From Candidatus Zhuqueibacterota bacterium (GTDB lineage: Bacteria > Zhuqueibacterota > Zhuqueibacteria > Thermofontimicrobiales > Thermofontimicrobiaceae), in contig JBMOPW010000026.1 in the NCBI GenBank assembly GCA_049322915.1, forward strand, positions 207,013 through 271,012: 64,000 nucleotides of DNA, written 5' to 3'. Every line of letters starts with the position of its first letter. The first letter of the stretch is position 1. Positions 41,076 through 64,000 of the stretch are shown here, one piece after another. A program made the position numbers and the translations under genes. The notes below the pieces were generated by a model. That model did no database searches, was not told the DNA's origin, and saw only the letters and a list, made by a program, of their open reading frames with translations.

Positions 41076-41084
41076 CTCCTTCGT

Positions 41085-45699: not shown

Positions 45700-45705
45700 A
45701 GCATT

Positions 45706-46599: not shown

Positions 46600-46629
46600 C
46601 TTACACTCCTGGAATTTTACATTGTCATA

Positions 46630-46819: not shown

Positions 46820-46834
46820 CATCATATTTTCAAA

Positions 46835-48109
46835 TTAAACTTCCAGTTCCTTAAACAACTGCGCAGTCTTTCGTCTGTAAATTCCCACGCCGGAGAGCAT
46901 GGTTCCGATGACTGTGGAAAAAATGCCGGGAATGAAGCCGATGAAATAGGCCGGCGGGGTTATCTGCGCGCGGAATTTTGCCGGCATCATCATGGATGCG
47001 TTTTTCATGGCGGAACTGAAATCAAAGCCTTTTTCCTGCAAGAGGTACGCCAATCCCAAACCGACGAGCGTTCCAAGTACGGAGCCGGCAATCCCAATGG
47101 CAACTGATTCGACAATCATCGACCGATAGACATGCCCCTTAGCCTCGCCAATGGCCAGGCGAATGCCCACTTCACTGTATCTTCGGAGACCGCCCAGCAG
47201 GCCGGCATTCCACAACACAATGGACATAACTCCGATGAAAACAAAAATGAACAGCCCAACCATGCTTTCCAGGTAGGCCAGCATTTCTGATAAATTATTC
47301 TGATCTTTCAATTTTAACATAATTGGTGAAAACTCGTTCTCCGAATCCGAATATTTTTGATTGAATGTGTTCTTCAACAGGTCTGCTTTTTTCTCATCAT
47401 AAAACGTGTTTGAAAAATATCCCAATATTTCGCTGCTGGCGTCAGTCATGTTCAGGGCAGTTTGTGCGTCACCGATATCCATCACCATTGCGCCGCGATC
47501 CATGGCCTGAATGCCGAACTGAACCGTACCGGCAACGGTAAAATTATACATGGCCATGCTGCCGTACATGGTGGAACTGATCAGTGTTACCTGGTCTCCC
47601 GGTTGAATCCCCAGCTTTTTGGTAAAATCTTCACTGATGAGAATTTCACCGGCAGTCCGGGGTACGTGTCCATTTACGAGCGAAGAGAGGATGTTCATCC
47701 GTTTCACTTCTTCGGAATTATTCGATAGCAAATCCACAGCCCAGCCAATCACTGGACCCTGACCTTTGGTTTCTCCTTTCTCATCCGGAACGTCTAACAA
47801 CCCGCCGAACCGAATTCGCTCCACCCAATTCATTTCCGGGAATTCCTGTCTTAAATTCTGGTCCAATTCATTCACATTCTCCAGGGCCAGATCCATGGGC
47901 ATCTGGTCCATGTTTTCAGCGTATGCGCGGGTTACAATTTTAACATGGCCGGTCGCGAAATTTGCATTGGATTCCAATGTGTCACCAAGAATTCCGGTGA
48001 TCCATGAATGCGCCACAACAGTGAGCATCACGCCAATGGCAACCGTAATGACCGGGAACAGGCTTCGGTTTCGGTCGCGAATTAAGCCTTTGATCAAAAA
48101 TTTTATCAT
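46835..48109 (-). CDS. FtsX/LolE-like ABC permease
   Basis: 4-TM topology with a large periplasmic loop; RRYSEVGIRLAIG. Confidence 0.88.
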   Translation of the reverse strand: MIKFLIKGLIRDRNRSLFPVITVAIGVMLTVVAHSWITGILGDTLESNANFATGHVKIVTRAYAENMDQMPMDLALENVNELDQNLRQEFPEMNWVERIRFGGLLDVPDEKGETKGQGPVIGWAVDLLSNNSEEVKRMNILSSLVNGHVPRTAGEILISEDFTKKLGIQPGDQVTLISSTMYGSMAMYNFTVAGTVQFGIQAMDRGAMVMDIGDAQTALNMTDASSEILGYFSNTFYDEKKADLLKNTFNQKYSDSENEFSPIMLKLKDQNNLSEMLAYLESMVGLFIFVFIGVMSIVLWNAGLLGGLRRYSEVGIRLAIGEAKGHVYRSMIVESVAIGIAGSVLGTLVGLGLAYLLQEKGFDFSSAMKNASMMMPAKFRAQITPPAYFIGFIPGIFSTVIGTMLSGVGIYRRKTAQLFKELEV

Positions 48110-49278
48110 TGAATTTTTCCTCGAATTGCGTCCGTGGGATTCATTTTTGTTATTCGTCGCGCCGGGAGAAAACTGACAACGGTGACAGTAATCAGCACGA
48201 TAACGATGGTCATGATTATTAATTTCAGGCTGTAAACCGGGTAAATTTTATCGGCGATGGCCAGACCATAATCGTCATAGCCCTGGGGAATTGAAAATCC
48301 GCGAATTGCCTGAAACGACAGTAACGGAATGCCATACAACGCCCCGACGAGCGCGGCCAAAACCGCGTGCATGGCGCCTTCCACGGTGAAAAGCCGAACC
48401 ACCTGCCAGCGCGTCATGCCCAACGCAATGTCGGTGCCGATTTCTTTTTGCCGCCGGAAAATGGACAGCACCTGGGTATCGAAAATCGCCAACAGCGCTA
48501 GCGACATTAAAATCATGTACATGATGGAACCGCCAACCGACTTCTGCTCGATGATTTGGTCGATGTCCGCCAACAAAAAATCATGATTTTTGAAATTCCA
48601 GCCTTCAACTTTAGCAGGTACCTTGTACTCTTTTTCCGAGATGAGAATAGTGGCCTCGCCCGGCATTTGCAGCATGGTGCGAAGTTTCTTCAACGGAATC
48701 CACATCTGGCCGTTGTCCGTCGCCGGGACATCGGTTTTATAAATCCCGACAATTTTTGCTTCGGCTGCATCAAACGTTCCATTCACATCGCGCCAGCGTA
48801 CAGTCACGTAATCGCCCATCTGAAGCCTGTTGTTTCGGGCCATGCGCGTGCCGATGATCGCCGGGATTCCTTCTATTTCAGTCTTTAGCATATTCGCCGG
48901 AATTTGAATGATGTTCTGATTTGGATCGATTCCCTTGAGCACGATGCTCTGCATGCGACCGTCCGGGTAAATGGTGGCCTGTGACAAAAGGATGGGCGTG
49001 AGCTTGCCCTCTTCCACTTCCTTGAGAAGCGGGTCCGGCAATTTCCCGTGGCTATCGCTGATGGTGAACGGATCGTAACGGTCATATTCCTGATGCCAGT
49101 ACTGGCCGCCGCCGTAATCCCATTCAATGGTATCGTGGCGCGCCTGCCGGTTCCAGCCTTCCAGCAGGCCTTTGTTCCAGATAATGACGACAAACGACAG
49201 TGAAAGCACAATGACATTGAGCCATGTCCGCAATCCGGCGCCGATTAAATTTCGAAATGCTAATTTTACAGCAAGCAT
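48106..49278 (-). CDS. FtsX/LolE-like ABC permease
   Basis: LAFRNL; RRQKEIGTDIALG; PARRITKMNPTDAIR. Confidence 0.88.
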   Translation of the reverse strand: MLAVKLAFRNLIGAGLRTWLNVIVLSLSFVVIIWNKGLLEGWNRQARHDTIEWDYGGGQYWHQEYDRYDPFTISDSHGKLPDPLLKEVEEGKLTPILLSQATIYPDGRMQSIVLKGIDPNQNIIQIPANMLKTEIEGIPAIIGTRMARNNRLQMGDYVTVRWRDVNGTFDAAEAKIVGIYKTDVPATDNGQMWIPLKKLRTMLQMPGEATILISEKEYKVPAKVEGWNFKNHDFLLADIDQIIEQKSVGGSIMYMILMSLALLAIFDTQVLSIFRRQKEIGTDIALGMTRWQVVRLFTVEGAMHAVLAALVGALYGIPLLSFQAIRGFSIPQGYDDYGLAIADKIYPVYSLKLIIMTIVIVLITVTVVSFLPARRITKMNPTDAIRGKIQ

Positions 49279-49307
49279 TGTTGCCTCCTCGGTTGGATTT
49301 TCGATGG

Positions 49308-49442
49308 GTGGTTATTGGTAAAATAGTGATTGGTGAGTTCGAATTGTACCATTTGAATTATCTTGAAATTAATTTCACAATTCACCTCTACCCACTCACG
49401 TTTCATTAATCACCTCTCACCAATCACCTCTCACCAATCACC
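49308..49442. repeat. Heptamer repeats (AATCACC/TCTCACC alternating x5) with an inverted partner arm
   Basis: Tandem array at 49408-49442; GTGATTGGTGAG near 49326-49337. Confidence 0.7.
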
Positions 49443-50133
49443 TCATTATTTCATCTTTCACGACCTTCCCGTCTTCTATCGAAATTTTTCGATGCAGGTA
49501 GTGAATTACTTTGTCATCGTGCGTGGCAAAAATGAACGTGGTTTGAAATTCCTTGTTCAGATTTTCCATGGTACGCAAAATGTGATGGGAATTTTTTGCG
49601 TCCAGGTTTGCCGTGGGTTCGTCGGCCAGAACGACCTTCGGTTTTTTTACCATGGCGCGTGCAATGGCCACTCGCTGACATTCGCCGCCGGAAAGCTGGG
49701 GCGGTTTGGATTTAATCTTGTCCGTCAGCCCGACCCATTCCAGTGCATCGTGTATTGCTTTCTTTCGTTCATCGGAAGGCACTTTCAGCAAGAGCAAAGG
49801 AAATTCCACATTCTCGAAAACCGAGTACACATTCAGCAAATTGTATGTTTGAAAAATGAAGCCCAGGCTTTCGTTCCGCAATCGGGCCGCCTGCTTGTGT
49901 GTCAGCTTACTGATGGAATTGCCTAACACTATAGCCTCTCCCGCCGAAGGGGAATCCAGCGAACCGATGATATTCAGCAGCGTTGTTTTGCCGGAACCGC
50001 TCGGTCCGACTAAACCGGCAAATTCGCCCCGGCGAAACGATAAATCGATGCCATTCAACGCAGTGAAACTACCGCCTCCAATGGGAAACCATTTCTTCAA
50101 TCCGGAAAGCGTTATGATTTTTGAATTTTCCAT
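49438..50133 (-). CDS. ABC transporter ATP-binding protein (LolD/MacB-like)
   Basis: GPSGSGKTT, LSGGE, LADEPT, ATHD. Confidence 0.95.
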   Translation of the reverse strand: MENSKIITLSGLKKWFPIGGGSFTALNGIDLSFRRGEFAGLVGPSGSGKTTLLNIIGSLDSPSAGEAIVLGNSISKLTHKQAARLRNESLGFIFQTYNLLNVYSVFENVEFPLLLLKVPSDERKKAIHDALEWVGLTDKIKSKPPQLSGGECQRVAIARAMVKKPKVVLADEPTANLDAKNSHHILRTMENLNKEFQTTFIFATHDDKVIHYLHRKISIEDGKVVKDEIMR

Positions 50134-50183
50134 GGGTTCGACTCCAAAAAGTGAAATCTATGTTCGGAATTTTTGATTTCGAA

Positions 50184-51356
50184 TTAATGATGAAATGACA
50201 CCAGCACCTGCAATCCCCTGCCCGCGAAAAGATTGTTGTCTCCCTGAATTTGATAAATCTGAAATTGATCCGGATTCCAGAATGCCATAAAATAAAGACT
50301 CCATCGATCGAATGTTCGCTGCCAGTTGATGAAGCGGTACCAGTCCGAATTGTCCCAATTGTAATAGATGATGGTTGAAAAATTATCGATGATGCCCAGC
50401 GGATAGCTCATTGAAAAAGCAGAAAAAGCGAGGTCTTCGGTCGTCTTAAAAGCGCTCCCGGCTGTGGCCATGTTCAAATATTCGCATTGGACGTTCAGTC
50501 CGTTGCCGATATCAAAGGTATAATCCATGCCCGCATTGACCAGTCGCTGATAATCGAACATCGATAAATTCAATTCCTGGTGAATCAGCGCCGCTTCGCA
50601 CCACACGCCCACACCGACATCCCATTTTCCATCCAGGCCGAGGCGCCATTCGGGAATTGCGGACTTCGAAGATAGCAAGCTGGAAAATGGCGTCGCGTTC
50701 AAATCAGCTTCGCGATGGTGAAATGTGAATGCAGCTTCCCCGGTGAGCACCGGAACCTGCACGCGGCCGCCGTATTCGATTTTCTTATTATTCGAAGGAA
50801 AAGCCTCCCACCCTTTTGTTTCATCGTTCCCATACAAACCCCATAGCCAAATGTTTGCGTTGTTGAGGAAATAATACCGTCCCAGAAATGCGTACACGCC
50901 ATCTGTCATTTGCAGGGGATCGCGCGGATCGATGCGGTCGAACCACATGAGCGGCCGCAGGAACATGGCTGATCCAAAATTTAATTTTTGCAGCCCAAAC
51001 CGCAGCTCGAACTGGGATGACGAAAGCCTCAGCCACATTCGGTAGGGCTTCACTTTTCCATCGGTGTCAAATTCCTGGTCCTGCTGAAAAAGAACTGTCC
51101 CGTAAGAATTAAAAGAAATTTCAGCGTCCAATGAAAAGTTATCAGAAATCCTTTTTCCGAGAGAAAGCTCTGGAATGTAACGCAGCCCGATTTGCGCTTC
51201 AGCCTCCTTTTTCGGATTCACCGTCACCCAGTCTGAAAGCTGGCCATGTAATCCAACTGTCTGGGAAAATAGCAATTGAAATTCCAGTAAAACTAAAGAG
51301 AATGCCAATACAAAAAAAATGGCTATTCTGAAAATTATTTTACTCCTGGATTCCAT
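50184..51356 (-). CDS. Hypothetical outer-membrane beta-barrel-like protein
   Basis: Signal peptide; aromatic beta-strand pattern; located inside the ABC operon. Confidence 0.65.
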   Translation of the reverse strand: MESRSKIIFRIAIFFVLAFSLVLLEFQLLFSQTVGLHGQLSDWVTVNPKKEAEAQIGLRYIPELSLGKRISDNFSLDAEISFNSYGTVLFQQDQEFDTDGKVKPYRMWLRLSSSQFELRFGLQKLNFGSAMFLRPLMWFDRIDPRDPLQMTDGVYAFLGRYYFLNNANIWLWGLYGNDETKGWEAFPSNNKKIEYGGRVQVPVLTGEAAFTFHHREADLNATPFSSLLSSKSAIPEWRLGLDGKWDVGVGVWCEAALIHQELNLSMFDYQRLVNAGMDYTFDIGNGLNVQCEYLNMATAGSAFKTTEDLAFSAFSMSYPLGIIDNFSTIIYYNWDNSDWYRFINWQRTFDRWSLYFMAFWNPDQFQIYQIQGDNNLFAGRGLQVLVSFHH

Positions 51357-51948
51357 CTTCAGCTTCTTTCTGATGCGGTGTTATTCCATAAAAGAAAAAA
51401 GTTGTGAGCTCCATAATCAAATCCTGAGCATTTTCATAAAGCGCGACCAACTTTTCATCCGCTGCCATATCGAACATGTGATTCAAAAAATAGAGGATGA
51501 ACTTCGGATTAATGTCCCGGCGAATGTCCCCGTTTTTCTGAGCCTCGATATAATCGTTCAAGATCATTTGAATGCCTTCATTCCTTTTTTGAACGATATA
51601 GTTAATTATTTCAGGGTCCCCATTTTTGAAAAGATCATCGAGCAATTCCCGGCTGACTTCATTGGTTTGTTCCATCTTCAGTTGAATAGTCTGTTTTACT
51701 TTGTCAGTAAAAGGAATATCCTGATTCATAATTTGGTGGTATTTTCCTAACGCTTCTTCGGCAATTTTATCATAAACAGCGATGAACAATTCCGATTTAT
51801 TTTTAAAATGCTTGTAGAACGTCATTTTACTCACGCCGGCGTCCCGACAAATCTCCTCGATGGAAACTCGTTTCAAGCCAAATTTCCAAAACAATGAACG
51901 CGCGGTTGAATAAATCTGCTGCAGTTTGGGTTTGTCAATTGATTCCAT
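51340..51948 (-). CDS. TetR/AcrR-family regulator
   Basis: ARSLFWKFG..VSIEEICRDAGVSKMTFYKHFKNK. Confidence 0.93.
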   Translation of the reverse strand: MESIDKPKLQQIYSTARSLFWKFGLKRVSIEEICRDAGVSKMTFYKHFKNKSELFIAVYDKIAEEALGKYHQIMNQDIPFTDKVKQTIQLKMEQTNEVSRELLDDLFKNGDPEIINYIVQKRNEGIQMILNDYIEAQKNGDIRRDINPKFILYFLNHMFDMAADEKLVALYENAQDLIMELTTFFFYGITPHQKEAEDGIQE

Positions 51949-52465
51949 AGAACCTTACGTCCTTTACGATGCAAGTTTTAATTTACGTTTTATGTTTTAT
52001 TTTACTTAAATCGTACGATTCGTTTTTGAGAAGGTTCCGGTTTTTTAAATAAATTTTGGCTCTATTCTAAATTGTGTGGGTAATTTTAAATACGTCAAAA
52101 ACTAACCACAGAGCACACTGAGAATGCACAAAGTTCTCAGAGTTTTTTAAATCTTAAAAGCCTGATGTCACCAATTTTTTGATCGAAATGCCAATTGTCT
52201 TTCAGAAGTATTTTTATTCTTGTAAATTTTTTTCTTGGCGATCGTTGCGTTTCCGTTGCGCCCTTGCGGTGAATCTTTTTACCCATACGAAATGACATAG
52301 AACCTAAATTTTAATAGGACTAAAGGTCAGGAAAATTTAGTGAAATAGTTGATGATTTGGTTGAATTTGAGGGGGAAAAAATGTGGAATATCACGAATAG
52401 TAAAATGGTTATATATTACCAGCGTACTGATCTGGAATATTTTAGAAGTTGTTCATTTTTACTGA

Positions 52466-52745
52466 TCAAAGGGTCTTCTTCGAAAAAGCAGTCGCCAAAA
52501 TCAATCGATTGTGTGTTTCCAGTCCTTTAATGGATTCAGCAACTCTCAACAATGAAACCTCCATTGGAACGATCTGGTAGTTATGACTTCCTTCAATTTT
52601 ATCAAGTGTATCAGAAAAATAAATATTGATTCTTCCTTTCATAAAGATATGGCAATTCAATCATTGCGATAATTGGGATGTAAATAATAGACGTTGTCCC
52701 GGCTTCCTTAATCGCAGCTAAAGTATTTGTAAATTTCAAGTGAAG
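52466..52745 (-). pseudogene. Frameshifted, 5'-truncated PIN-domain (VapC-like) gene
   Basis: Frame A IYIPIIAMIELPYLYE joins frame B IEGSHNYQIVPME..LETHNRLILATA (HDRxIxATA-like). Confidence 0.6.
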
Positions 52746-52862
52746 GTGGTCGCGATTCGCGCCTGGCGAAGAATATGTCGTTTCTTGCCGCGCATCCGCC
52801 ATTCGACTGGATGACCACCCTGCTCCACGACCGGCTGTCACAGCCGTGGACGGTGTTTCGGG

Positions 52863-52937
52863 CAGGCGGCAGAGCTATTGGGGCTAAAGAAAGAAGAATT
52901 GAAGGATATAAAAGAAAGCCTGGAAGAAATGAAATAA
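52863..52937 (+). pseudogene. 3' tail remnant of a homolog of the R-M gene at 57694-60960
   Basis: AAELLGLKKEELKDIKESLEEMK* vs AAELWGLTKEELKDIKESLEEMR* (20 of 23 residues identical). Confidence 0.88.
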
Positions 52938-52969
52938 ATCACGCTTTCACATCAGGTTTGCCAAAAACG

Positions 52970-53029
52970 TCTTGACATTGTCAAGATATTCTGCTATATT
53001 AGTTGTCATAAATGCTATTTAATTGACAA
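52970..53029 (+). promoter_or_regulatory. Promoter TTGACA-17-TATATT with palindromic operator over the -35
   Basis: TCTTGACA-T-TGTCAAGA at 52970-52986; -10 at 52995-53000; second TTGTCA..TGACAA pair at 53003-53029. Confidence 0.75.
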
Positions 53030-53033
53030 ATCC

Positions 53034-54143
53034 ATGAGGCTATTTATGGAGTCAAACCGACCAAATCGTTTCCGTGAGCTGCGGGAACATGCCGGCCTGT
53101 CGCAGGCAGAGTTTGCCCGGCGGATGGGCATGGATAAAACCCTCTTGTCACGCTGGGAAAATGGCACACGAGCGCCATCGTTGGATCAGCAACTGACAAT
53201 TGCCCGTACACTGGGCATCACGTTTGACTATTTGGTAAATGCGCAGTTCTCGGTGCACTTCCAGTTTCGGGCAAAGAAAACCTTACCGGCGCCGCAAAAA
53301 ACAGCCATCGACCGGGCGCTGCTGGATGCTGAAATGCAAATTCATTATCTGGACACGACGTTCCGTCAGGCAAAACGCCTGCCTCAACCGTTTGCACTAC
53401 GCATGGATTTCCTGCCGCAACAACTTCCCACGCTCGCAGAACAGACGCGGCAGTACCTGAAATTGAATCAGCGGGTGACATTTGATGAATTGAAACAGGC
53501 TTTGACCGAATTCAATGTGCACATCTTTGAGTGGGCGTTGCCATTGGAATTATCCGGTCTTTCTTGCCGCAATGCTTACACCGTGATATTCATCAACCGA
53601 TTGCATACACGGGAACGGCGATTGTTCTCACTGGTGCACGAACTGGCGCACGTGCTGTTTCATCTCGGGCGTGACAATACGCAGACCGTCGTTTCTGTGA
53701 TCGCCTCAAATCGGGAGCCGGAAGAGAAGGAAGCTAATGCCTTTGCCGCCGAACTGTTAATGCCAGGGGCGACCATCGACACGATGATCCACTCACTGGG
53801 TCAAAAGATCAAATCACCCGAAACAATCGACAACCTGGCTCATTATTTTAATGTCTCCCGTGATTCTATCTTCTATCGGTTAGCGGAAAAAGGGATTTTC
53901 TCCTGGGATGAAAGAAAGCGCTATTTCAGCCAGTCGACTGCTGCGCGACCCGAACCCGATGTACGCGTCGACATCATTGACGAGCAAATTGCATCGGAAT
54001 TTCTGCGCCTTGCACTCGATCTCTTTGACGGCGAGCAGGCATCGGCCGGTAAGCTCAGCGAGTGGTTTTTTACCAACCGTATAACCGTCGATGAGTACCT
54101 GGCGCGGCGATCCATTGAACTGGAAGAAGAGACGATTTTCTGA
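53034..54143 (+). CDS. XRE HTH fused to ImmA/IrrE (M78) zinc metallopeptidase
   Basis: LREHAGLSQAEFA..SRWENG; RRLFSLVHELAH; EKEANAFAAELLMP. Confidence 0.92.
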   Translation: MRLFMESNRPNRFRELREHAGLSQAEFARRMGMDKTLLSRWENGTRAPSLDQQLTIARTLGITFDYLVNAQFSVHFQFRAKKTLPAPQKTAIDRALLDAEMQIHYLDTTFRQAKRLPQPFALRMDFLPQQLPTLAEQTRQYLKLNQRVTFDELKQALTEFNVHIFEWALPLELSGLSCRNAYTVIFINRLHTRERRLFSLVHELAHVLFHLGRDNTQTVVSVIASNREPEEKEANAFAAELLMPGATIDTMIHSLGQKIKSPETIDNLAHYFNVSRDSIFYRLAEKGIFSWDERKRYFSQSTAARPEPDVRVDIIDEQIASEFLRLALDLFDGEQASAGKLSEWFFTNRITVDEYLARRSIELEEETIF

Positions 54144-54150
54144 GGTAAGT

Positions 54151-54693
54151 ATGGTGGAAGAAGTGGAATTGAAATTCGTTGATCCGTTAATATTTGATGC
54201 GTCCGTCATTTTCAACATTGGGCATCGCGGGGAACTGAGCCAGGTGATCGCCCGGCTGGCTGAACGATACAGGCTGCTTGTTCCTCCTGAAGTCGTTGAA
54301 GAGACACAACGGATTTCTGAATTCCGGCAATACTATCACAACTTAATTTCAGCCGACTTCGAACAACACGCAGGAAAAGTCCCTGCCATGTACTCCGATG
54401 CGATTATCAAACTGGCAACCCGATTGGGCAGCGGAGAACTCAACGTGATTATCCTTGCCCTGGATACCGGCGGCACGGCAGTGATCGACGAGCGAACAGC
54501 ACGTAAAGAGGCGCGCACTTTGAATATTCCAGTGACAGGAACGCTGGGTCTGTTGCAATATGCCATGCAACAGGCATGGTTGACCGAACAGGAAGCGCTG
54601 GTGAAAATTGAAACGTTGAGAGCGAATGGATTTCGGATTCCGTCATTTGCGCATGGGCAAATGTTGTCTGAGTATTTAAGTAACTTGGGTTAA
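54151..54693 (+). CDS. DUF3368-like PIN-domain protein
   Basis: IFDASVI, LGSGE..I.LA, VIDERTARKEA..IPVTGTLGLL. ATG at 54151 follows GAGGT. Confidence 0.85.
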   Translation: MVEEVELKFVDPLIFDASVIFNIGHRGELSQVIARLAERYRLLVPPEVVEETQRISEFRQYYHNLISADFEQHAGKVPAMYSDAIIKLATRLGSGELNVIILALDTGGTAVIDERTARKEARTLNIPVTGTLGLLQYAMQQAWLTEQEALVKIETLRANGFRIPSFAHGQMLSEYLSNLG

Positions 54694-54708
54694 TAGCTGA
54701 ATAAGAGG

Positions 54709-54820
54709 AGTAATTACGTCGCCTGTCTGGTGACCCGCGTTATCATCGACATTGAAGACGCCCTCGCATGACTCAAAGGCGCTGGCGTATGAGTTGGTGA
54801 AGGGGGCGCATAATTTGTAA
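54709..54820 (+). pseudogene. uxaC: Degenerate 3' tail of uronate isomerase (copy 1)
   Basis: SNYVACLVTRVIIDIEDA / (frameshift) KALAYELVKGAHNL*; aligns with copy 2. Confidence 0.6.
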
Positions 54821-54864
54821 AGCAGTTTTCGTCTGCCTGGTGTGAATTAAACTCTGAGGTTAAT

Positions 54865-56049
54865 ATGTATATCTCACGTTTAAAACTTATCAATTGGAAA
54901 AATTTTGGTAACATTGATATTCCATTGCAGCCTCGCACGTTTATTGTCGGAGCCAACGCCTCAGGAAAATCAAATTTATTGGATGCCATTCGATTCCTCC
55001 GTGACATAGCGAAAAATGGAGGTGGCTTACAATATGCTGTTAATAACGTCCGGGGAGGTGTTAAAAAAATCCGCAATCTATCCGCGCGCCAGGAAACCGA
55101 CATTACCATTGAAATAGAGCTAAGCGATGCTGATGCAAAGAAACCCGAATGGCTATATCGATTAAAATTCAATCAAGTCGGTGGTGGTGTCCGTGACTTA
55201 AAGCCAACGCTGCGTGAAGAGATAGTATGGTATAAGGATACACCAGTACTGGAGCGGAGTTTCGGTAAATTCAGTAAGAAGGAAAGTACGAAGGTCGATC
55301 GATTATCTCTATCTACTTTTCTTGAGCAACCCAGCCAGAACGATAAATTTTGGCCATTGGTAGAAATTATCCGGGATATACAGTATCTTCACATTATTCC
55401 GCATTTAGTCCGTTTATCCCACCAGGTCATCATGCCAGAAGAGCAGGCAGACTATTTCGGAAAAGATATTATTCAACGCATCAATCATTTAAACAAAAAG
55501 ACGCAACTATCTTATCTAAAAAAAATTGGGAAAGTACTCGAAATTGCTGTTCCCCAATTCAAACAAATTACATTACAGCAAGATGGTGATGGTGTACCTC
55601 ACATTCAGGCTATTTTCCAACATTGGCGGGCGAAAGGGGCGCGACAATGGGAGGATCAATTTTCCGACGGGACGCTTCGGTTAATTGGTTTACTATGGGC
55701 ATTGTTAGATGGAACAAAACCACTTTTGTTAGAAGAACCGGAACTCTCTCTCAACGCAGCCATCGTTTCACGCCTTTCTGAGACCATTGCCAGCCTTCAA
55801 CAGAAGAAAAACGGTCAACGCCAGGTCATCGTCTCCACTCACAGTTTTGATTTGTTGAATAATTCCGGAATTTCCACCAAAGAAACCATTATGCTTATCC
55901 CCGGAGAAAATGGTACTGAAGCGCGGTGCGCAAACGACGATCTGGAGATCAGGACGCTGCTGGAATCCGGAATGACAGTTGGCGAAACAGTCATTCAACA
56001 GACTGCGCCTAAAAATATCCAACGAATGACGCGTGTTATGGGGGACTGA
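54865..56049 (+). CDS. ABC-type (AAA_21/SMC-like) ATPase
   Basis: LKLINWKNF, GANASGKSN, FSDGT, LLLEEPE, VSTHS. Confidence 0.9.
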   Translation: MYISRLKLINWKNFGNIDIPLQPRTFIVGANASGKSNLLDAIRFLRDIAKNGGGLQYAVNNVRGGVKKIRNLSARQETDITIEIELSDADAKKPEWLYRLKFNQVGGGVRDLKPTLREEIVWYKDTPVLERSFGKFSKKESTKVDRLSLSTFLEQPSQNDKFWPLVEIIRDIQYLHIIPHLVRLSHQVIMPEEQADYFGKDIIQRINHLNKKTQLSYLKKIGKVLEIAVPQFKQITLQQDGDGVPHIQAIFQHWRAKGARQWEDQFSDGTLRLIGLLWALLDGTKPLLLEEPELSLNAAIVSRLSETIASLQQKKNGQRQVIVSTHSFDLLNNSGISTKETIMLIPGENGTEARCANDDLEIRTLLESGMTVGETVIQQTAPKNIQRMTRVMGD

Positions 56050-56642
56050 TGGTCAATATCACAGCCGTTGTTGAAGATGAATTGCATGAGAATATTTTAA
56101 AAAAAATGCAACTGGAAATCCCTGATATTAATATCGAGCAAATTTTGGGAAAACGAGGAAGTGGGTATGTAGAAAAACACCTGAAAGCATTTAATAACGC
56201 CGCGAAATTGAAGCCGTATGTTATTCTCCTTGATCTGGATTTCCGTCCATGTCCACCCAGTTACATCAAAAAAATTGTAATGTTTAATCGACAACCCCAA
56301 TTATGCATCAATATTGCTGTTCGGATTGCTGAGACCTGGTTGATCGCGGATCGAAAAAATTTTGCAGGATTTCTCGGAATATCAATGGCTAAAATTTGCA
56401 GAGACGTTGAAAGTATTGCTGAACCTAAAAAATATATCTTTAAGTTGACGGAAAAATCCAGAAATCGTCAATTGCGTGAAGCCATCATTCCGAGACAGGG
56501 CGCTCGGACTGGTCCATTATACAATACAGCGTTGGCGGAATTCATTTTTGACCACTGGGACATCAATCAGGCTTGCGAATGCTCACCAAGTTTGTGCCGT
56601 TTTATTGAGAGATTCAAAATGATAGGTGAGAATATAGAGTAA
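56049..56642 (+). CDS. DUF4276-like TOPRIM-fold protein
   Basis: AVVED, LLDLD, AETWLIAD, SPSL.RF; TGATG overlap with the ATPase gene. Confidence 0.75.
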   Translation: MVNITAVVEDELHENILKKMQLEIPDINIEQILGKRGSGYVEKHLKAFNNAAKLKPYVILLDLDFRPCPPSYIKKIVMFNRQPQLCINIAVRIAETWLIADRKNFAGFLGISMAKICRDVESIAEPKKYIFKLTEKSRNRQLREAIIPRQGARTGPLYNTALAEFIFDHWDINQACECSPSLCRFIERFKMIGENIE

Positions 56643-56649
56643 TAGTCAG

Positions 56650-56806
56650 AATACCCGCGCGTTCCCTTCAATGCCGGCACGCCAAGACCTGAGCCGCTGG
56701 GTTGACAGTAACTTCCTTTCCGGTATGGTCGCCTGCCACATCATCGACATGAGCGACGCCCGGCGCATGAGTAAGGCGCTGGTGAAGTGGGCGTACCAGT
56801 TTGTGA
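56650..56806 (+). pseudogene. uxaC: 3' tail of uronate isomerase (copy 2)
   Basis: NTRAFPSMPARQDLSRWVDSNFLSGMVACHIIDMSDARRMSKALVKWAYQF matches the remembered UxaC C-terminal motif DTRAFxSIPARHDxxRRVD..AYxL. Confidence 0.75.
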
Positions 56807-56986
56807 GAGACTTAAAAAGCTTTAATCGGGACAGCGAAGCTTACAAATGATGGCTTCTTAAAAGGGATGGAACAGGACGGTGGGCGCAATACTATCCAAC
56901 TGAAAAAATTCCAAAAACTAGACAATTTTAAATAACTATTTAATCACAAGGGAATTTCACTGAGTTAACCTATAGTAGTAATTATC

Positions 56987-57222
56987 ACCAGCTATGCGAT
57001 GTTTTTGTTGCAATCCATTTTACAGACGATCGATCCATCGCAGGTAGCAATAATCATTATGAATGTCAAGCATGGAGACTTGTTAAAAATTGATGAGCCA
57101 CCAGCCAGGCTTGATGAAGCTAAAAAAGGACTATGGCTAAAACTTGGGCTGGAGCCCAGACCATTTCAGAATGTTCATTTTTTTCTACCACGAGGAAAAA
57201 ATGGTGAAGCGAATAGCTTTGT
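56987..57222 (+). pseudogene. herA: Internal fragment of a herA homolog (direct repeat of 62666-62901)
   Basis: 236-bp colinear match with mostly synonymous differences. Confidence 0.92.
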
Positions 57223-57519
57223 CCCCCCTCGGCAACGACGCCTTTTTTTATTTTTACCCCTGGTCATTTCGAAAATGAAACTCTCAAAATGTTAACCCAA
57301 ATAATGCAATAGAAATTTGAAGAACTGCCACCAAGACACGAAGACGCTAAGTATCACTGATGAAAACTAAAGTTATTTATAAAATTATCAGACAAAAAAA
57401 TGAAAAGGTTTTACTAAAAAGTTGATAATAACATTTTATAAATTCTTTCTTTGAGTCATAGCTTCTTTGTGGCGATTGCATGATCCGGGTTAAATTATAG
57501 CGGAATGTCGCCATGATCC

Positions 57520-57548
57520 TTGACATTAGCCGAAGCGTTTTGTATATT
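57520..57548 (+). promoter_or_regulatory. Sigma70 promoter TTGACA-17-TATATT for the R-M/nurA/herA operon
   Basis: Exact motif ~145 bp upstream of the ATG. Confidence 0.65.
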
Positions 57549-57693
57549 TTGGCTGCTGATAATCTTTAAAAATCCATTTTAGTCAAATGGTCCAACCTAA
57601 ATCTCAATCAGGCCTTTTTTATTTTATGAAAATGATTGTCTCGCTCTTGCCACTTTATTGATATTTTAACAGATAGCAAGAAAGAAAACCTAC

Positions 57694-60600
57694 ATGAACA
57701 TTTCAATTTCCGACATTACCTGCAAAATAAATGAAGCTGTTGCTATCGCTGCGGCAACGCCCAACCAGCCTGAAGCAAAACTAAGAGAGCTTGTTGCGCC
57801 ACTCTGGGATGAGTATATCCGATCAAATCGAATCAATCTCAATTTTAATCCCAGAGACGAGCGACAACTTGCTAATGGACGGGCAGACACAGTATTCAAT
57901 CGTCTGATTCTGGAGTACAAAAAACCTGGCGTTATCAAAGCGAACAATGAAAAAAATCGCCAGCTAATAACCCAGGTGAAAGGTTATATCGAAGACCTTG
58001 CCAAAGAAGAACGATGGAAAGAGGAACGCTTGCTCGGTGTTGCCTTCGATGGCAACTACTTCCTGTTCGTCCGCAAGGTCGGTCGCTGGATCGAAGAACA
58101 ACCACTGCCCGTTTCTGCCGAAAGCGTCGAACGATTTTTATTAACTCTCGAAAAGCTGACTACCAAAGCGGCTCTGGTTCCAGATAATTTAATTCGGGAC
58201 TTTGCCATCGGCACGGGATCGCTGAACTATATCGCATCCAATGCGATCAAAGCCTTCTACTTTACGCTATGTAGCAATGTCAATGATCGTGTGAAGGTAT
58301 TTTTTAAGCAATGGGCATTGCAATTTTCAGAAGTTCATGGCGCCATCGAAAACAAAAAATTCAATGCGGAAACGCTGTTCAAGTCTTATGGATTCAAAAA
58401 AGATGAACAGAAAGATTTAAATTTTCTCGCCTTTTTCTTTGCGCTCGATACCTATTACGGCTTGCTGATGAAGCTGCTGGCGTATCAGGTCGTTGGATTC
58501 TACACGCTGAAGAATGTTGCTGGCCTTCCGCTGGCGGAATGGGAAAAATTGGATACCATTTCATTGAAGGAAAAACTGGACAACTTAGAAGAAGGTGGCA
58601 TTTTTCGCTCGCTCGGTATACGTAATTTTCTGGAAGGCGATTTGCTATCTTGGTATCTCAATGATTGGAACGAGGGCGTGGAAACTGCGATTCGTGCCAT
58701 CATTGATCGGCTCAACCAGTACGATCCAGAAACCATGGAACTGATTCCTGATGAAACACGGGATATACTCAAAAAACTCTATCAATTCCTTGTGCCCAAG
58801 CAAATTCGGCACGATCTTGGCGAATATTACACTCCCGATTGGCTGGCAGAGCGTTGCCTGAATCAAGTTGGCTATGGCCCAAAAGAGCCAACGCTGCTGC
58901 AAAAACGTCTGCTCGATCCTGGCTGCGGTTCTGCCACATTTCTCATACTTGCCATCAAACGGGCCAAGGAGCATGCCCGTTTAAATGCCATTCCTCCTCA
59001 TGAAACTATCAATCAAATTACCAAAAACATCGTTGGTTTTGAATTGAATCCGCTGGCAGTCATTGCTGCACGAACCAACTATTTGCTGGCGATTGCCGAT
59101 ATGTTGAAATACAAAACAGGCGAATTGACCATACCCGTTTATCTCTGTGACAGCATTAATCCCCCTCAAGCCAGGATGGCGGATGAGATGACCCTCTTTG
59201 AGGAAAAGCTGCCCTACGAGGTCAGAACTTCGGTGGGCAATTTTTATTTTCCGCATGAAGTGGTGACGCGACAGGGCATACAAAAACTGGTTAACTTGAT
59301 GGAAGACGGAGTAAAGAACGGCCAATCCATAGATATTTTTTTACAACGGGTGAAAAAAGAGCTTGCTTTGCCGGAAGACGATGTGGAAAAAACTGATGCC
59401 GTGCTCATTGCCGCCTATGATAAGTTATTAGAACTTGAAGAGAGAGGGATTAATGGTATCTGGTCAAGGATTATCAAGAATGCGTTTGCTCCACTGATGT
59501 ACCAAAACCAATTTGATATCATCATTGGTAATCCACCGTGGGTGAATTGGGAGGCATTGCCGCAAGAATACAGGGATGCAACGACACATATTTGGAAGCG
59601 ATATAACTTATTCGAGCATACTGGCCTTCGGGCACGATTAGGCAGTGCAAAGGATGACATCTCTGTTTTGATGACATACGTTTCCATTGACAAGTACTTA
59701 AAGGATGAAGGTAAACTTTGCATCGTTATTACGCAGACATTGTTCAAGACTGTAGGCGGGGGTGAAGGATTCAGACGATTCAGGCTAGGAAATAAAGGGA
59801 TACCATTCAAGGTCTTGCAGGTGGACGACATGGTAGATCTACAACCATTCGACTCTGCCACCAATAAGACTTCGGTGTTTTTCTGCCAAAAAGGTCAAGA
59901 AACCTCGTACCCTGTGGAGTATCATCTCTGGAGGAAAAACGGCAAGGGATCAATTGGGATGGACATGACTTGGCAAGAGGTCACACAAAAAACTCAAGTT
60001 AGCTACTTCAAGGCTGAAAGTGTCGATGGCTCGGAACAAGGTGCATGGATTACTGCGAGACCCAAGGCTATAAAAGCGATCAAAAAGGTGATGGCACCGT
60101 CTTACTATAAGGCTCGTGAAGGCAGCTCCGGTGGTTTGAACAGTGTCTACCTATTGAAACCGTTTAGTTCAAAGGGTCGACTCCTGCAAGTGGCAAATTT
60201 CACTGAGAATGCGAAAAAGAAAGTCAAACGAGTTGAGGCATTCTTGGAGCCCGATCTTGTATTTCCAACTCTCAGAGGTCGGGAAATCGTTCGCTGGCAA
60301 GCGAAGCCTGAATTGGCTATTGTACTGCCACAGGACCAGAATAAACCCAGTAATGGCATGCATCCACAGACACTCGAGAAGAAGTATCCAAAAACGTTTG
60401 AGTATCTTGAGTCCTTTAAAACGGATTTAGAGAACCGGAGCATCCTCAAGCAGTTCCTACATAACCAACCATACTATTCAATGTATAATACTGGTCAGTA
60501 CTCTTTCGCTCCATATAAGGTTGTGTGGACAAGAGTCGGGAATAACATGAAGTGTGCAGTCGTTGGTGATAGAGAGCAAGAATTCCTCACTAATCGTGTT

Positions 60601-60960
60601 GTGACCCCAATCGAAACTGTGGTTTTCGTGCCGTTCGAAGACATCAACGAAGCTCATTTCTTTTGTGCTCTTTTGAATTCTTCTATTTGCAGTTTTGCAA
60701 TTTCCTCCTATTCCAACAAGGGCACTGGCAGTTTTGGCTCTCCACATGTACTGGAACACATTGCAATTACCAGATATGACATGTCAAACGAAACGCAAAA
60801 AGAGTTATCCGGTCTATCTAAACAATGCCACGAGAAAGTTGCCGCTGGCATCAGCGTGAGCGACCTTGAAAATAAGATCGATGAGCTTGCCGCTGAGTTG
60901 TGGGGATTAACAAAAGAAGAGTTGAAGGATATTAAAGAAAGTCTGGAGGAGATGCGATGA
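57694..60960 (+). CDS. Fused restriction endonuclease/N6-adenine methyltransferase (Type IIG/Eco57I-like)
   Basis: N-terminal GRAD..ILEYKKP (PD-(D/E)xK); GEYYTP; LLDPGCGSATFL; IIGNPPW; TaqI_C-like C-terminal region (YSFAPYKVVW, CALLNSS). Confidence 0.9.
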   Translation: MNISISDITCKINEAVAIAAATPNQPEAKLRELVAPLWDEYIRSNRINLNFNPRDERQLANGRADTVFNRLILEYKKPGVIKANNEKNRQLITQVKGYIEDLAKEERWKEERLLGVAFDGNYFLFVRKVGRWIEEQPLPVSAESVERFLLTLEKLTTKAALVPDNLIRDFAIGTGSLNYIASNAIKAFYFTLCSNVNDRVKVFFKQWALQFSEVHGAIENKKFNAETLFKSYGFKKDEQKDLNFLAFFFALDTYYGLLMKLLAYQVVGFYTLKNVAGLPLAEWEKLDTISLKEKLDNLEEGGIFRSLGIRNFLEGDLLSWYLNDWNEGVETAIRAIIDRLNQYDPETMELIPDETRDILKKLYQFLVPKQIRHDLGEYYTPDWLAERCLNQVGYGPKEPTLLQKRLLDPGCGSATFLILAIKRAKEHARLNAIPPHETINQITKNIVGFELNPLAVIAARTNYLLAIADMLKYKTGELTIPVYLCDSINPPQARMADEMTLFEEKLPYEVRTSVGNFYFPHEVVTRQGIQKLVNLMEDGVKNGQSIDIFLQRVKKELALPEDDVEKTDAVLIAAYDKLLELEERGINGIWSRIIKNAFAPLMYQNQFDIIIGNPPWVNWEALPQEYRDATTHIWKRYNLFEHTGLRARLGSAKDDISVLMTYVSIDKYLKDEGKLCIVITQTLFKTVGGGEGFRRFRLGNKGIPFKVLQVDDMVDLQPFDSATNKTSVFFCQKGQETSYPVEYHLWRKNGKGSIGMDMTWQEVTQKTQVSYFKAESVDGSEQGAWITARPKAIKAIKKVMAPSYYKAREGSSGGLNSVYLLKPFSSKGRLLQVANFTENAKKKVKRVEAFLEPDLVFPTLRGREIVRWQAKPELAIVLPQDQNKPSNGMHPQTLEKKYPKTFEYLESFKTDLENRSILKQFLHNQPYYSMYNTGQYSFAPYKVVWTRVGNNMKCAVVGDREQEFLTNRVVTPIETVVFVPFEDINEAHFFCALLNSSICSFAISSYSNKGTGSFGSPHVLEHIAITRYDMSNETQKELSGLSKQCHEKVAAGISVSDLENKIDELAAELWGLTKEELKDIKESLEEMR

Positions 60961-62099
60961 TAGAATTTACAGCCACGCTTAAGAAAATAATGTCTGTGGT
61001 TTCTGACATGCTTGAGCTTCTTCCAGCAAGCGAGGGCGCTGTTGAAGAGATGACCTACGTTGATGCAGAAGAACGGGATGATACTAAGCTCTCTGGCGAC
61101 AATCTTTTGATTGAAAACTCGCTTGAAATTCCCAGGCCAACCTGGAAATATCGGACGGTTAACCCAATTGAGAGAAATAAAAAGCACTTTTTCAGATATT
61201 TTCTTGATGGCTCATACAGACATTATTTCCTTGCCACCGGTCTCGAACATGACCGAGCAACTCCTATTTTCCTTGCCCAGATTGCAATCGTTATCCTTGT
61301 GCGTGATGCTAGGGGCAAACTCAGTATCGTGCCAGATTTTAAGCGCCATCAATGGTTTCTTTTGATTGCTAAATCAAGGATTTCCGAAGCAGCCTGGGAA
61401 CGTATCCTGGAATCAACCCAGGAATCAAGAATAAATGTCATCATCAGGGATCTAGCGGAGATGGATGCCTTTAGCGGCGATTTCAACGAAGCGCAGGATT
61501 TGCGAGAGCGAGGACGCAGTAAGACACGTCACCTGATGAGCACTATGGAATTTGATATCGTAAAGGAGTTTAAAGAAAAATTCCCAGATGAATGGATGAT
61601 CAAAGATGGGCTGGTTTCTTTTGGGAAATATGGCGGAGGAATGCAAAGCCAAAAGGTCATTGGCGTTGCCAAAAGTTTCACCAGCGTTCAAAAGTTCTAC
61701 TCCCATGGCGGCAAAACGAAAGAAAAACAAAGCGTCGTTTCTTTGCTTGGCGAGCTTCCACCTAATCATCGAACAACTGCTTACGAAGGTTATGGCGGGA
61801 GGACGGCTTTTTGGTACATCCGTCTGCGCCAATCGCAGCAACTACTCTATCCGCTATTCGGTGTTATTAAAGTAGAGATTCCGGTTCTTGAAGAGCAACC
61901 GTTGACAACGGAGTTGCTCGATGAAATTTCCGGTGCTTTGCTTGCAGAAAAATTCGTTACGCCTTATGGCTCTGATGATCGATGGCATTCCCATTTGTAT
62001 CCTGTCTACCAGGCAGAACATGCCTCGAAGCAGCAGTTTTATTCAACAGAAGTTATTCAAGGTTGTATCAATAATGCGATAAGGAGTCAACAAAAATGA
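60957..62099 (+). CDS. nurA: NurA-like (RNase H fold) nuclease
   Basis: YFLDGS, WMIKDG, IGVAKS, FWYIRLR, HLYPVYQAE; lies directly upstream of HerA; ATGA overlaps at both ends. Confidence 0.75.
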   Translation: MIEFTATLKKIMSVVSDMLELLPASEGAVEEMTYVDAEERDDTKLSGDNLLIENSLEIPRPTWKYRTVNPIERNKKHFFRYFLDGSYRHYFLATGLEHDRATPIFLAQIAIVILVRDARGKLSIVPDFKRHQWFLLIAKSRISEAAWERILESTQESRINVIIRDLAEMDAFSGDFNEAQDLRERGRSKTRHLMSTMEFDIVKEFKEKFPDEWMIKDGLVSFGKYGGGMQSQKVIGVAKSFTSVQKFYSHGGKTKEKQSVVSLLGELPPNHRTTAYEGYGGRTAFWYIRLRQSQQLLYPLFGVIKVEIPVLEEQPLTTELLDEISGALLAEKFVTPYGSDDRWHSHLYPVYQAEHASKQQFYSTEVIQGCINNAIRSQQK

Positions 62100-63757
62100 G
62101 CGAACAGAAAAATAATCCAGTGATTGGCAGAACATCGGCTACAGACCGAGACCCAAACACAGCAGACAAATTCAATTTTTGGATTACTTCAAATGTAATC
62201 GTCAATCCGTTCGACATCGTCGAGTCCGAACATTTCAACAGCAGCAAAACGTATGGACTGGTAACGAATCTTGAGCATCGCACGGATGCGGCCAGCCATC
62301 TTGCCAATTTTGTTTCTAATAATTTTGGCTCTGTCGCTGAAGAGCCTAACACGCCTCGTGTTGGTGCTACACTGGCAAAAGTCAATGTGATGATGAATGA
62401 TGGCGGCGGCAAGAAGCCAGACGGTACGTACCGGGACGGTATCTATATGCCAGTTGAAAACGAAAAAAACGTCCGTTTTGCAGAAGAGTCTGGAATTCAT
62501 GCCGCACTTGGTATTGATACAATGAAAGATGAAAATCGCATTCCGGCGGGACTTATTAAAATGAGTAATGAAATTGAGGCGGTTGTTTATCTCGACAAAT
62601 CGTATGTCATAGGACCAGAATCGGCTCATGTGAATATTTCAGGTATCAGCGGACTGGCGACAAAGACCAGCTATGCGATGTTTTTGTTGCAATCCATTTT
62701 ACAGACGATCGATCCATCTCAGGTAGCAGTAATCATCATGAATGTCAAGCATGGAGACTTGTTAAAAATTGATGAGCCACCAGCCAGGCTTGATGAAGCT
62801 CAAAAAGGACTGTGGTTAAAACTTGGGCTGGAGCCCAGACCATTTCAGAATGTCCACTATTTTTTGCCACGAGGAAAGAACGGAGAGCCAAACAGCTTCG
62901 TTAGACCGAGACAATCACGGCTTTATGCCTACGAATTAAATGATTGTATAGATAAGCTTGAACTGCTCTTTTCTAGCATACCTGATCCAACCGAGACAAT
63001 AGAATCGTTGGTTGGAGAGATTTCCAATGGATTATCAAGCAAAACTGCTAAATCTCAATGGGCGAAAGTACAAGATTGGTTAAGCCTGCTTGACGGCGAG
63101 CCTCTTGCCGAGGCTGGCAAATCTAAATCATTTGGGGATGTTAAAACACAATCAGTTGGAAAATTTCGGCGCCACCTTCGGCGGATGGTGAAAACAAGGA
63201 CAACTGGAATATTTACTGACCGACGGGGGCGAAACGAGGATCATCTTGCTGACGAAATAAAAAAAATCGAGGGTGGCAATACCTACGTTATTGATATTGC
63301 CAAGCTTCAGGATCATGAACAGGCTTTTGTATTCGGAGATATCGTTCGAACAGTGTATGAGATGTATGCAGAATCCGATGAAACCCTCAATCAGCCTAAA
63401 AAGGTACTTATCTTTGTTGACGAATTGAATAAGTATGCCCCTGCAGGGGTGAAGGATTCTCCTCTCATTGAACAGATACTTGACATCTCTGAGCGTGGAC
63501 GCTCTCTCGGGGTGATTCTATTTTCTGCTCAGCAATTCATGAGTTCCGTTCATGCGAGAGTGACAGGAAATTCAGCAACTAGAATACTTGGGCGTAGTAC
63601 TTCAAGCGAAATTATGCAGCCCGACTATCGATTTCTCGATCAAGACTTGAAGCTTTCTGTAACAAGGCTTTCAAAAGGCGAGTTGTTAGTTCAACATGCT
63701 ATTTTTCGCCAGCCGGTGAAGATAGTTTTTCCGATGCCAGCCTACAAACAGGACTAA
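62096..63757 (+). CDS. herA: HerA/FtsK-family ATPase with N-terminal HAS-barrel-like region
   Basis: HVNISGISGLATKTS (Walker A variant), IFVDELNKYAP (Walker B), RGRSLG, SAQQ. Confidence 0.88.
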   Translation: MSEQKNNPVIGRTSATDRDPNTADKFNFWITSNVIVNPFDIVESEHFNSSKTYGLVTNLEHRTDAASHLANFVSNNFGSVAEEPNTPRVGATLAKVNVMMNDGGGKKPDGTYRDGIYMPVENEKNVRFAEESGIHAALGIDTMKDENRIPAGLIKMSNEIEAVVYLDKSYVIGPESAHVNISGISGLATKTSYAMFLLQSILQTIDPSQVAVIIMNVKHGDLLKIDEPPARLDEAQKGLWLKLGLEPRPFQNVHYFLPRGKNGEPNSFVRPRQSRLYAYELNDCIDKLELLFSSIPDPTETIESLVGEISNGLSSKTAKSQWAKVQDWLSLLDGEPLAEAGKSKSFGDVKTQSVGKFRRHLRRMVKTRTTGIFTDRRGRNEDHLADEIKKIEGGNTYVIDIAKLQDHEQAFVFGDIVRTVYEMYAESDETLNQPKKVLIFVDELNKYAPAGVKDSPLIEQILDISERGRSLGVILFSAQQFMSSVHARVTGNSATRILGRSTSSEIMQPDYRFLDQDLKLSVTRLSKGELLVQHAIFRQPVKIVFPMPAYKQD

Positions 63758-63847
63758 AGAATCCGATTTCATACTATTTGGTATTTGGCATTTCGAGCAA
63801 TTCAGGGTAAGAATTATTGAATTTTATGCAGGAAGCTTCGATCTATT

Positions 63848-64000
63848 GGTAGCAATCACCGGGCGAGTGGTAGCAACGGCCGGGAGAGCGGTAGCAACCT
63901 TCGGGCGAGTGGTAGCAATGGCCGGGCGAGTGGTAGCAATCGCCGGAAGAGTGGTAGCAATGGCCGGGCGAGTGGTAGCAACGGCCGGGCGAGTGGTAGC
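63848..64000. repeat. 21-bp tandem repeat (consensus GGTAGCAAYGGCCGGGCGAGT), 7 full units + partial, runs off window end
   Basis: GGTAGC recurs at 63848, 63869, 63890, 63911, 63932, 63953, 63974 and 63995. Confidence 0.95.

Follow-up and report, generated by a model that had tools for sequence, protein, structure and literature searches.

The operon and its described relatives

The locus considered here consists of three genes lying near the end of a 64,000-nucleotide stretch of a Candidatus Zhuqueibacterota genome (GenBank assembly GCA_049322915.1, contig JBMOPW010000026.1, positions 207,013 to 271,012 of the forward strand; hereafter the window), which is the final 64 kb of its contig, C26, in an assembly of 6.25 Mb and 45 contigs. 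The genes encode a type IIG restriction endonuclease-methyltransferase, a NurA-fold nuclease and a HerA-family ATPase, which we call R, N and H, and their closest described counterpart is an operon of the integrative and conjugative element (ICE) ICEth1 of Thermus thermophilus HB27. In that strain four genes are co-transcribed, namely TTC1877 (the type IIG enzyme Tth111II/TthHB27I, 1106 amino acids), TTC1878 (NurA-like, 377 amino acids), TTC1879 (TdtA, a hexameric ATPase of the HerA/FtsK type) and TTC1880 (a PF01555 N4/N6 methylase of 410 amino acids) (Blesa 2017, PMC5365140), and TTC1877 and TTC1880 have been listed as a mobile restriction-modification unit (Furuta 2010, PMC2853133). Clusters resembling that of tdtA have been named in T. 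scotoductus DSM 8553 and Chloracidobacterium (PMC5365140). The first-pass annotation of the window had not recognised the trio as a named system, a view that the Thermus operon corrects: judged by its sequence, the trio is a new three-gene member of the Tth111II-NurA-TdtA operon family, with a function that is disputed rather than unknown. Two literatures on the same genes have stayed unjoined, the Thermus field describing a DNA-secretion machine and the work on restriction enzymes describing stand-alone Tth111II, TsoI and TspDTI with poor turnover. We favour, with a probability of about one half, the reading that R would mark self DNA and nick or cut foreign DNA, which NurA-HerA would then degrade processively; the cut-then-shred scheme of the first-pass annotation seems reasonable. 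The features on which the comparison turns are the following.

57520-57548, plus strand: sigma-70-like promoter match TTGACA-17-TATATT, 11 of 12 positions, upstream of R, putative
57694-60960, plus strand: R, type IIG (IIC) bifunctional restriction endonuclease-methyltransferase of the TspDTI/Tth111II subfamily, 1088 amino acids (open reading frame, PADLOC and Pfam matches, motifs)
60957-62099, plus strand: N, NurA-fold nuclease, 380 amino acids (fold and kept residues; its start overlaps the R stop, ATGA)
62096-63757, plus strand: H, bacterial HerA-family ATPase (TdtA-like), 553 amino acids (HerA match and Walker motifs; its start overlaps the N stop, ATGA)

The three genes are joined, as the first-pass annotation had stated, by ATGA stop/start overlaps, which we read directly at 60957-60960 (R/N) and 62096-62099 (N/H), and the sequences GGAGG (60945-60949) and AAGGAG (62081-62086) precede the starts of N and H by 7-10 nt. 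The promoter that had been proposed upstream of R exists as a site and is the top promoter-like site within 56500-64000, but promoter-like sites in this region are no commoner than in shuffled sequences (12 found against 13.0 +/- 3.1), and for this reason we take it as a consensus match only, its promoter function being putative.

R matches the PADLOC model PDLC03630 (REase_MTase_IIG) over its full length (residues 21-1087, E=0, 1072 bits), and it also matches Pfam Eco57I and N6_Mtase. The translation contains the nuclease motif RADTVFNRLILEYKK (D65, E74 and K76, in the arrangement D65...E74-Y-K76) and the methyltransferase motifs LGEYYTPDW (375-383), DPGCGS (408-413) and NPPW (613-616), among which are the PD-(D/E)xK head and all the other R motifs quoted in the first-pass annotation. 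Residues D65 and E74 and the motifs DPxCGS (408-413) and NPPW (613-616) are kept in at least 95% of 42 full-length homologues, and 20 homologues have LDPACGSG and GNPPW as their consensus. The characterised enzymes of the TspDTI subfamily resemble R in their length of about 1100 amino acids and in the R-Mh-Mc-S domain order (PMC3384240, PMC3899748). The motifs of TspDTI, Tth111II and TsoI, given as D66/E75/E77 (D-EX(E/K)), DPACGSG and NPPW626, place an acidic triad at positions nearly identical to D65/E74/K76 of the window's R and have the DPACGSG-type S-adenosylmethionine (SAM) motif and NPPW in common with it, and the D-EXK form seen in R occurs in other homologues of the subfamily (PMC3384240). 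The recognition sequence of Tth111II is CAARCA, with cleavage at N11/N9; DNA with a single site is mostly nicked, in the top strand, and two sites are needed for efficient double-strand cleavage. Turnover is very low, and only one of the strands is methylated (PMC3899748). More generally the subfamily enzymes are slow, low-turnover, incomplete cutters that mostly nick single-site DNA (PMC3384240, PMC3899748), incomplete cleavage being a hallmark of the family (PMC3384240), and Tth111II, TspDTI and TsoI are active alone in vitro (PMC3384240, PMC3899748). In these two papers the enzyme is treated alone, and NurA or HerA neighbours are not discussed. The genome that contains the window has a second, unrelated Eco57I-family gene of the type IIG kind (C2:41248-41745, minus strand, an open reading frame of 1143 amino acids, Pfam Eco57I E 9e-45).

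Compared with the tdtA operon of ICEth1, the window's trio shows the same gene order and similar sizes (1088, 380 and 553 amino acids against 1106, 377 and a HerA-like protein), with a TspDTI-subfamily type IIG gene of about 1100 amino acids in first position, a NurA-family nuclease of about 377 amino acids directly upstream of the ATPase, a HerA/FtsK-family ATPase whose Walker A and B motifs are intact, and genes that are tightly packed or overlapping (PMC5365140). It differs in that no fourth methylase gene is found in the window, where the contig extends no more than 243 nt beyond herA, and in that its nuclease motif is D-EXK against D-EXE in ICEth1. With the cluster of T. scotoductus DSM 8553 (our locus L041) the window's proteins share 42% (R), 38% (N) and 57% (H) identity, the HB27 proteins themselves standing outside this comparison. 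Apart from a distant HerA paralogue, this is the only such cluster in the DSM 8553 genome. A look-up of its enzyme gives WP_019550238.1 and Blesa 2017 prints WP_020700619.1 for the T. scotoductus enzyme; because the accessions differ, the link from the window to the DSM 8553 cluster rests on this being the only cluster of that genome. The H protein cluster of DSM 8553 also includes proteins of T. antranikianii and T. thermophilus.

In the case of N, for which PADLOC 2.0 has no model, neither Pfam nor PADLOC gave a match, and the protein was assigned to the NurA fold by sequence and structure comparison, its AlphaFold model (from a 20-sequence alignment, pLDDT 81) finding its best match in the HerA-NurA complex of Deinococcus radiodurans (PDB 7f6d). 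Its residues D84, E198, D217, K239, H344 and H346 are kept in at least 95% of 68 homologues. H matches D. radiodurans HerA (7f6d_B) at E=7.8e-42, with the Walker A stretch included, and the PADLOC HerA model weakly (E 1.8e-4). At least 95% of 65 homologues retain its Walker A (GISGLATKTS, 183-192), its Walker B (440-443), R467/R469 and Q480. Among the residues so conserved in R, N and H are the likely catalytic and ATPase ones. The three gene identities proposed in the first-pass annotation are borne out by these matches. The Deinococcus complex is the best sequence and fold match to both N and H, and its HerA has in common with H the unusual Walker A form GISG(L/V)ATKTS. It is a chromosomal repair factor, and end resection is the classical role of HerA-NurA; to our knowledge it has not been reported with a restriction-modification enzyme, and a further difference is that the window's genome has no second HerA paralogue. 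R, N and H have no hydrophobic segment, on which ground a membrane-bound conjugative pump of the FtsK/TraB type was rejected. A predicted complex of R residues 1-345 with N, the only R segment and partner that this value concerns, scored 0.00, a value that weighs neither for nor against contact.

The resection role raises the possibility that the nuclease and ATPase serve the cell's own chromosome, resecting and helping to repair the breaks that a one-strand-methylating R would make after replication and so lowering the cost of autoimmunity. How cells handle such post-replication incisions is stated as unknown in the Tth111II paper (PMC3899748), and repair of the donor chromosome is one possible role of NurA according to Blesa 2017 (PMC5365140). 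Several observations speak against this explanation, however. The HB27 tdtA mutant is near wild-type in its survival of UV and heat (PMC5365140); HerA-NurA takes in DNA from an end, and the Thermococcus kodakarensis complex breaks down both strands and is unable to produce 3' tails suited to recombination, its authors proposing an antiviral role (PMC12977600); and the partners found beside solo R genes (see below) are helicases of the defence type rather than repair genes. As the first-pass annotation had noted for the window, mre11/rad50 (sbcCD) is not adjacent: no sbcC/sbcD-type match was found on the window's contig, the best weak matches lying on contigs C4, C36, C45 and C16, and no such conserved neighbour appears across the 80 N-H loci described below. 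A canonical NurA-HerA repair cluster with Mre11/Rad50 was rejected for this lack of linkage. We consider self-repair improbable, the least probable of the explanations weighed here.

Conservation of the linkage across phyla

An alignment search with N, taking one genome per species, yielded 83 relatives, 80 of whose loci were kept. H lies directly after N in 70/70 of the loci that have at least 1800 nt downstream, and an R homologue is present in 52/56 of those with at least 3400 nt upstream of N, the upstream stretch of the remaining 24 being too short to judge R. In these 52 loci R is adjacent to N in 33 (one partial copy); in 17 (four partial) it lies further upstream, separated from N by inserted genes, and in 2 it comes after H. 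In the other four of the 56 (L023, L055, L066 and L087) N-H stands without R. A second search, with R against metagenome contigs, gave at least 591 relatives, of which 80 loci were kept; 32/80 are linked to N-H (13 in the order R-N-H and 19 in the order N-H-R), nine with at least 3200 nt on both sides are solo, and 39 are not judgeable. If the count is confined to R loci flanked on each side by 3200 nt or more, 11 are linked and 9/20 are without N-H. The N-H pair of this clade is thus almost always accompanied by R, and R is accompanied by N-H about half the time. The permuted order, on one strand and with the linkage kept, is that of L044, L060 and the 19 metagenome loci (for example L105, L106, L132 and L148).

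The pairwise identity values of R, N and H rise and fall together (Mantel r 0.88-0.92, p 0.001, 37 loci), and the R-linked loci of the trio are spread over about 15 phyla. A quick tree of R, which tells against shared descent as the source of this co-variation, mixes 15 phylum-level groups, Chloroflexota alone requiring at least seven changes. Taken together, these results support R-N-H as a functional unit and not a chance neighbourhood, in agreement with the first-pass annotation, which had treated the trio as one unit. Chance adjacency of the three genes was rejected on the 70/70 and 52/56 counts. We infer the coupling of R to N-H only from this conserved gene linkage. One cluster, that of a 'Clostridiales bacterium' bin (L043), is almost identical to the cluster of T. 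scotoductus DSM 8553 (R branch lengths about 0.005) and is probably a mis-binned Thermus contig, and L084, from a Heimdallarchaeota bin, may be similarly mis-binned.

The same counts bear on whether R and N-H act together at all. R could be a stand-alone type IIG restriction-modification enzyme that travels with a separate defence system of the HerA-effector type, like SIR2-HerA, which would sense something other than the breaks made by R. Each module does occur alone, as the four N-H loci and the nine solo R loci show, R and N may have other defence cassettes between them, HerA joins unrelated effectors in known systems, and enzymes of the R subfamily are active in isolation. Yet the linkage outlasts changes of gene order, with 19 metagenome loci arranged as N-H-R and 13 as R-N-H, and it is kept through cross-phylum transfer with co-varying divergence; in the window the genes overlap at their stops and starts; and NurA-HerA needs a DNA end, which R would supply. 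We regard two independent systems as distinctly unlikely.

Solo R genes have neighbours of their own. In four of the nine (L161, L170, L171 and L172) a gene for an SNF2/ResIII helicase of 899-1096 amino acids comes after R in the same orientation; the helicase of L171 carries a PLD nuclease domain, and the two that were compared with PADLOC, from L171 and L172, resemble BrxHI/HmaA/DrmD. R thus seems able to exchange its motor or nuclease partner. A comparison of 65 N-H-linked with 8 solo R proteins gave 6 weak positions and no clear patch separating them. A PF01555 methylase (about 410 amino acids, with DPFxGxG and SPPY motifs) is present in 23/80 loci, mostly directly after H, and is absent from the window's clade, in which the closest relatives with long flanks have downstream genes unrelated to one another. 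Viral contigs yielded five distant N-H pairs only (27-28% and 39-40% identity), all without R, which, like L087, appear to be another NurA-HerA clade.

The defence island and the donation hypothesis

Upstream of the operon the window contains two small cassettes and two gene relics, and downstream of it a tandem array in which the contig ends.

52866-52934, plus strand: remnant, the last 23 codons of an R-like gene (87% identity to R 1066-1088, E 5e-6), directly before the cassette that follows
53034-54693, plus strand: two-gene cassette of a helix-turn-helix (HTH) and M78 peptidase protein (RmrA-like) and a PDC-S70-like protein (PADLOC-type matches)
54865-56642, plus strand: two-gene cassette of an ABC-type ATPase (HEC-01A-like, E 4e-126) and a DUF4276/Toprim-like protein (HEC-01B-like, E 1e-50) (model matches)
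56987-57283, plus strand: remnant of a second herA-like gene (84% amino acid identity to H 191-290), within a 98-amino-acid open reading frame at 56999-57295
63847-64000, no strand assigned: 21-bp tandem array, consensus unit GTAGCAATGGCCGGGCGAGTG, in which the contig ends

At the DNA level the herA remnant is 94.8% identical to 62666-62877 over 212 nt. Together with the R tail it is what is left of an older R-N-H module, and the two relics bracket both upstream cassettes. Because they flank both, the cassettes were probably once embedded in an operon too, and the relics point to turnover of the module with its passenger cassettes surviving.

Such embedding is seen directly in the relatives. 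Insertions between R and N occur in 17 loci, and of the inserted genes catalogued for 15 of these, 29/29 lie on the operon strand; 11/22 of the inserted proteins scanned have a PADLOC match at E <=1e-5, the matches being to HEC-01A/B, RmrA, PDC-S70, PDC-M04A, PDC-S09, PDC-M34B, mad8 (weak, E 1e-5) and a TIR effector. Pairs resembling HEC-01 lie between R and N in six loci (L020, L042, L047, L058, L085 and L088), the HTH-M78 pair in L013 and L021, and DUF3800/PDC-M04A genes in L010, L029 and L032; a three-gene STAND-like set is also found there in L053 and L056, and in L077 it separates H from the methylase gene (M). In the two loci with the HTH-M78 pair (L013:630-1643 and L021:1022-2044) R is cut to its C-terminal third (745-1088), followed by the cassette and then by N-H, an arrangement that resembles the window's R-tail relic. 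Embedded defence genes have been documented within defence systems (bioRxiv 10.1101/2024.01.29.577857).

The contig ends 243 nt past herA. The 21-bp unit of the array recurs elsewhere in the assembly, with about 21 copies opening contig C16 (1-438) and further copies in the 1.9-kb contig C17 (991-1099), the assembly being broken by this multi-copy repeat. No Rfam match was found in 51000-64000, no tRNA in the 64-kb window, no integrase among the open reading frames scanned in 39339-57295 (the downstream side being limited to 243 nt by the contig end), and no flanking or att repeats at the operon in the available sequence. The setting of the operon here is a defence island and not an ICE, and in both respects it differs from that of the tdtA operon, the ICE features (integrase, tRNA, direct repeats) not being found at the window's copy in the sequence available.

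The setting matters for the function assigned in Thermus, where the operon is regarded as a module of DNA donation: R would cut the host chromosome at many sites, and NurA-HerA (TdtA) would process the ends and push the DNA toward competent neighbours, serving gene transfer and not defence. The genetic data from HB27 favour this view. Transjugation, the donation of DNA, falls by about three orders of magnitude on loss of the restriction enzyme and by four to five on loss of NurA, and becomes undetectable on loss of TdtA; transfer frequency tracks the density of Tth111II sites, and TdtA, a hexameric ATPase, is found in membrane fractions (PMC5365140). In a later model the enzyme cuts the donor DNA and TdtA, aided by NurA, takes the cuts as origins (PMC7767461). 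The similarity of the window's trio to the T. scotoductus cluster points in the same direction. Besides the missing ICE features, however, a tyrosine-recombinase cluster accompanies only 4/80 loci, a search of 72,556 plasmid records (PLSDB) gave no match to N, the trio has no membrane segments, its neighbours and embedded genes are of the defence type, and the module is spread over phyla without known transjugation. Donation could itself be a by-product of self-cutting in polyploid Thermus. We hold DNA donation to be unlikely as the function of the window's operon.

Proposed mechanism and comparison with other systems

Under the cut-then-shred reading, R would provide both site specificity and self-marking. 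From its characterised relatives it may be expected to bind a short asymmetric site, to methylate a single adenine in host DNA, with SAM as donor, and to nick or cut unmethylated DNA at a fixed distance. A HerA hexamer with a NurA dimer would load at the break made by R and degrade the DNA processively, an activity shown for D. radiodurans and archaeal HerA-NurA and transferred here to N and H, so that rare breaks by R would be turned into irreversible degradation. A defence role of the operon is plausible. A wider proposal, which we hold tentatively and at slightly less than even strength, is that R-NurA-HerA would be a widespread unnamed anti-invader system, a methylation-based counterpart of TdpABC in which weak, nick-prone type IIG specificity is combined with processive destruction by NurA-HerA; that it would serve as a carrier operon for small defence cassettes (HEC-01, RmrA/PDC-S70, DUF3800, the STAND-like triplet); and that transjugation in Thermus would be a side product or exaptation of self-cutting in a host that is both polyploid and naturally competent.

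A number of points weigh against this reading. The only genetic data on this operon type, the knock-out phenotypes of HB27, assign it to DNA transfer and not to defence, either part of the unit can be found without the other (4/56 N-H loci, 9/20 long-flank R loci), and the co-varying identities of R, N and H could come partly from shared descent. The three-gene form has no second methylase, although enzymes of the subfamily methylate one strand only, a difficulty for the safety of self DNA beside a shredder. Several of the embedded cassettes are candidate defence genes only, and HEC-01 gave no protection in the assays of bioRxiv 10.1101/2024.01.29.577857. Full-text searches, supplements aside, brought up no paper in which the trio is named or tested as a system of defence. 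No system model of PADLOC 2.0 covers the trio either, in line with the expectation of the first-pass annotation, and this defence catalogue does not list it.

The comparative picture, with linkage in two gene orders, occurrence in about 15 phyla, a defence island, nested cassettes and SNF2 helicases as alternative partners, makes the idea of bacterial NurA-HerA as an antiviral shredder cheaply testable, and such a test would also tell whether restriction has transjugation as a side effect. If true, the shredder role would explain why enzymes of this subfamily can afford inefficient cutting.

Among the other known systems, DndFGH, which is directed against invaders, likewise joins type IIG-like domains to a HerA/FtsK motor, but there DndH fuses a target-recognition domain, an inactive methylase and a restriction endonuclease with the HerA/FtsK ATPase, and NurA is not part of it (PMC10853773); neither NurA nor TdtA is mentioned in that paper. 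Hma and DISARM-like systems use an SNF2-family helicase, which the window's operon does not contain and which is found instead beside 4/9 of the solo R genes. The SIR2-HerA and DUF4297-HerA systems likewise pair a HerA-family ring ATPase with an effector enzyme in a defence operon, but the effector here is the NurA-fold N and not SIR2 or DUF4297, and those systems have no methyltransferase. TdpABC is a phosphorothioate-based, restriction-modification-like system of thermophiles, reportedly the subject of An et al. in 2025, in which TdpC is said to put sulfur on the DNA backbone, with no adenine methylation and no sequence-specific cutter. It differs further from the window's operon in that H matched no TdpAB chain (PDB 8wfd) in sequence. 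Beside N and H, R (or M) is the only conserved gene. TdpABC offers, by analogy, a precedent for a modification coupled to restriction by HerA- and NurA-like proteins, which is the combination that R, N and H may represent with adenine methylation as the mark.

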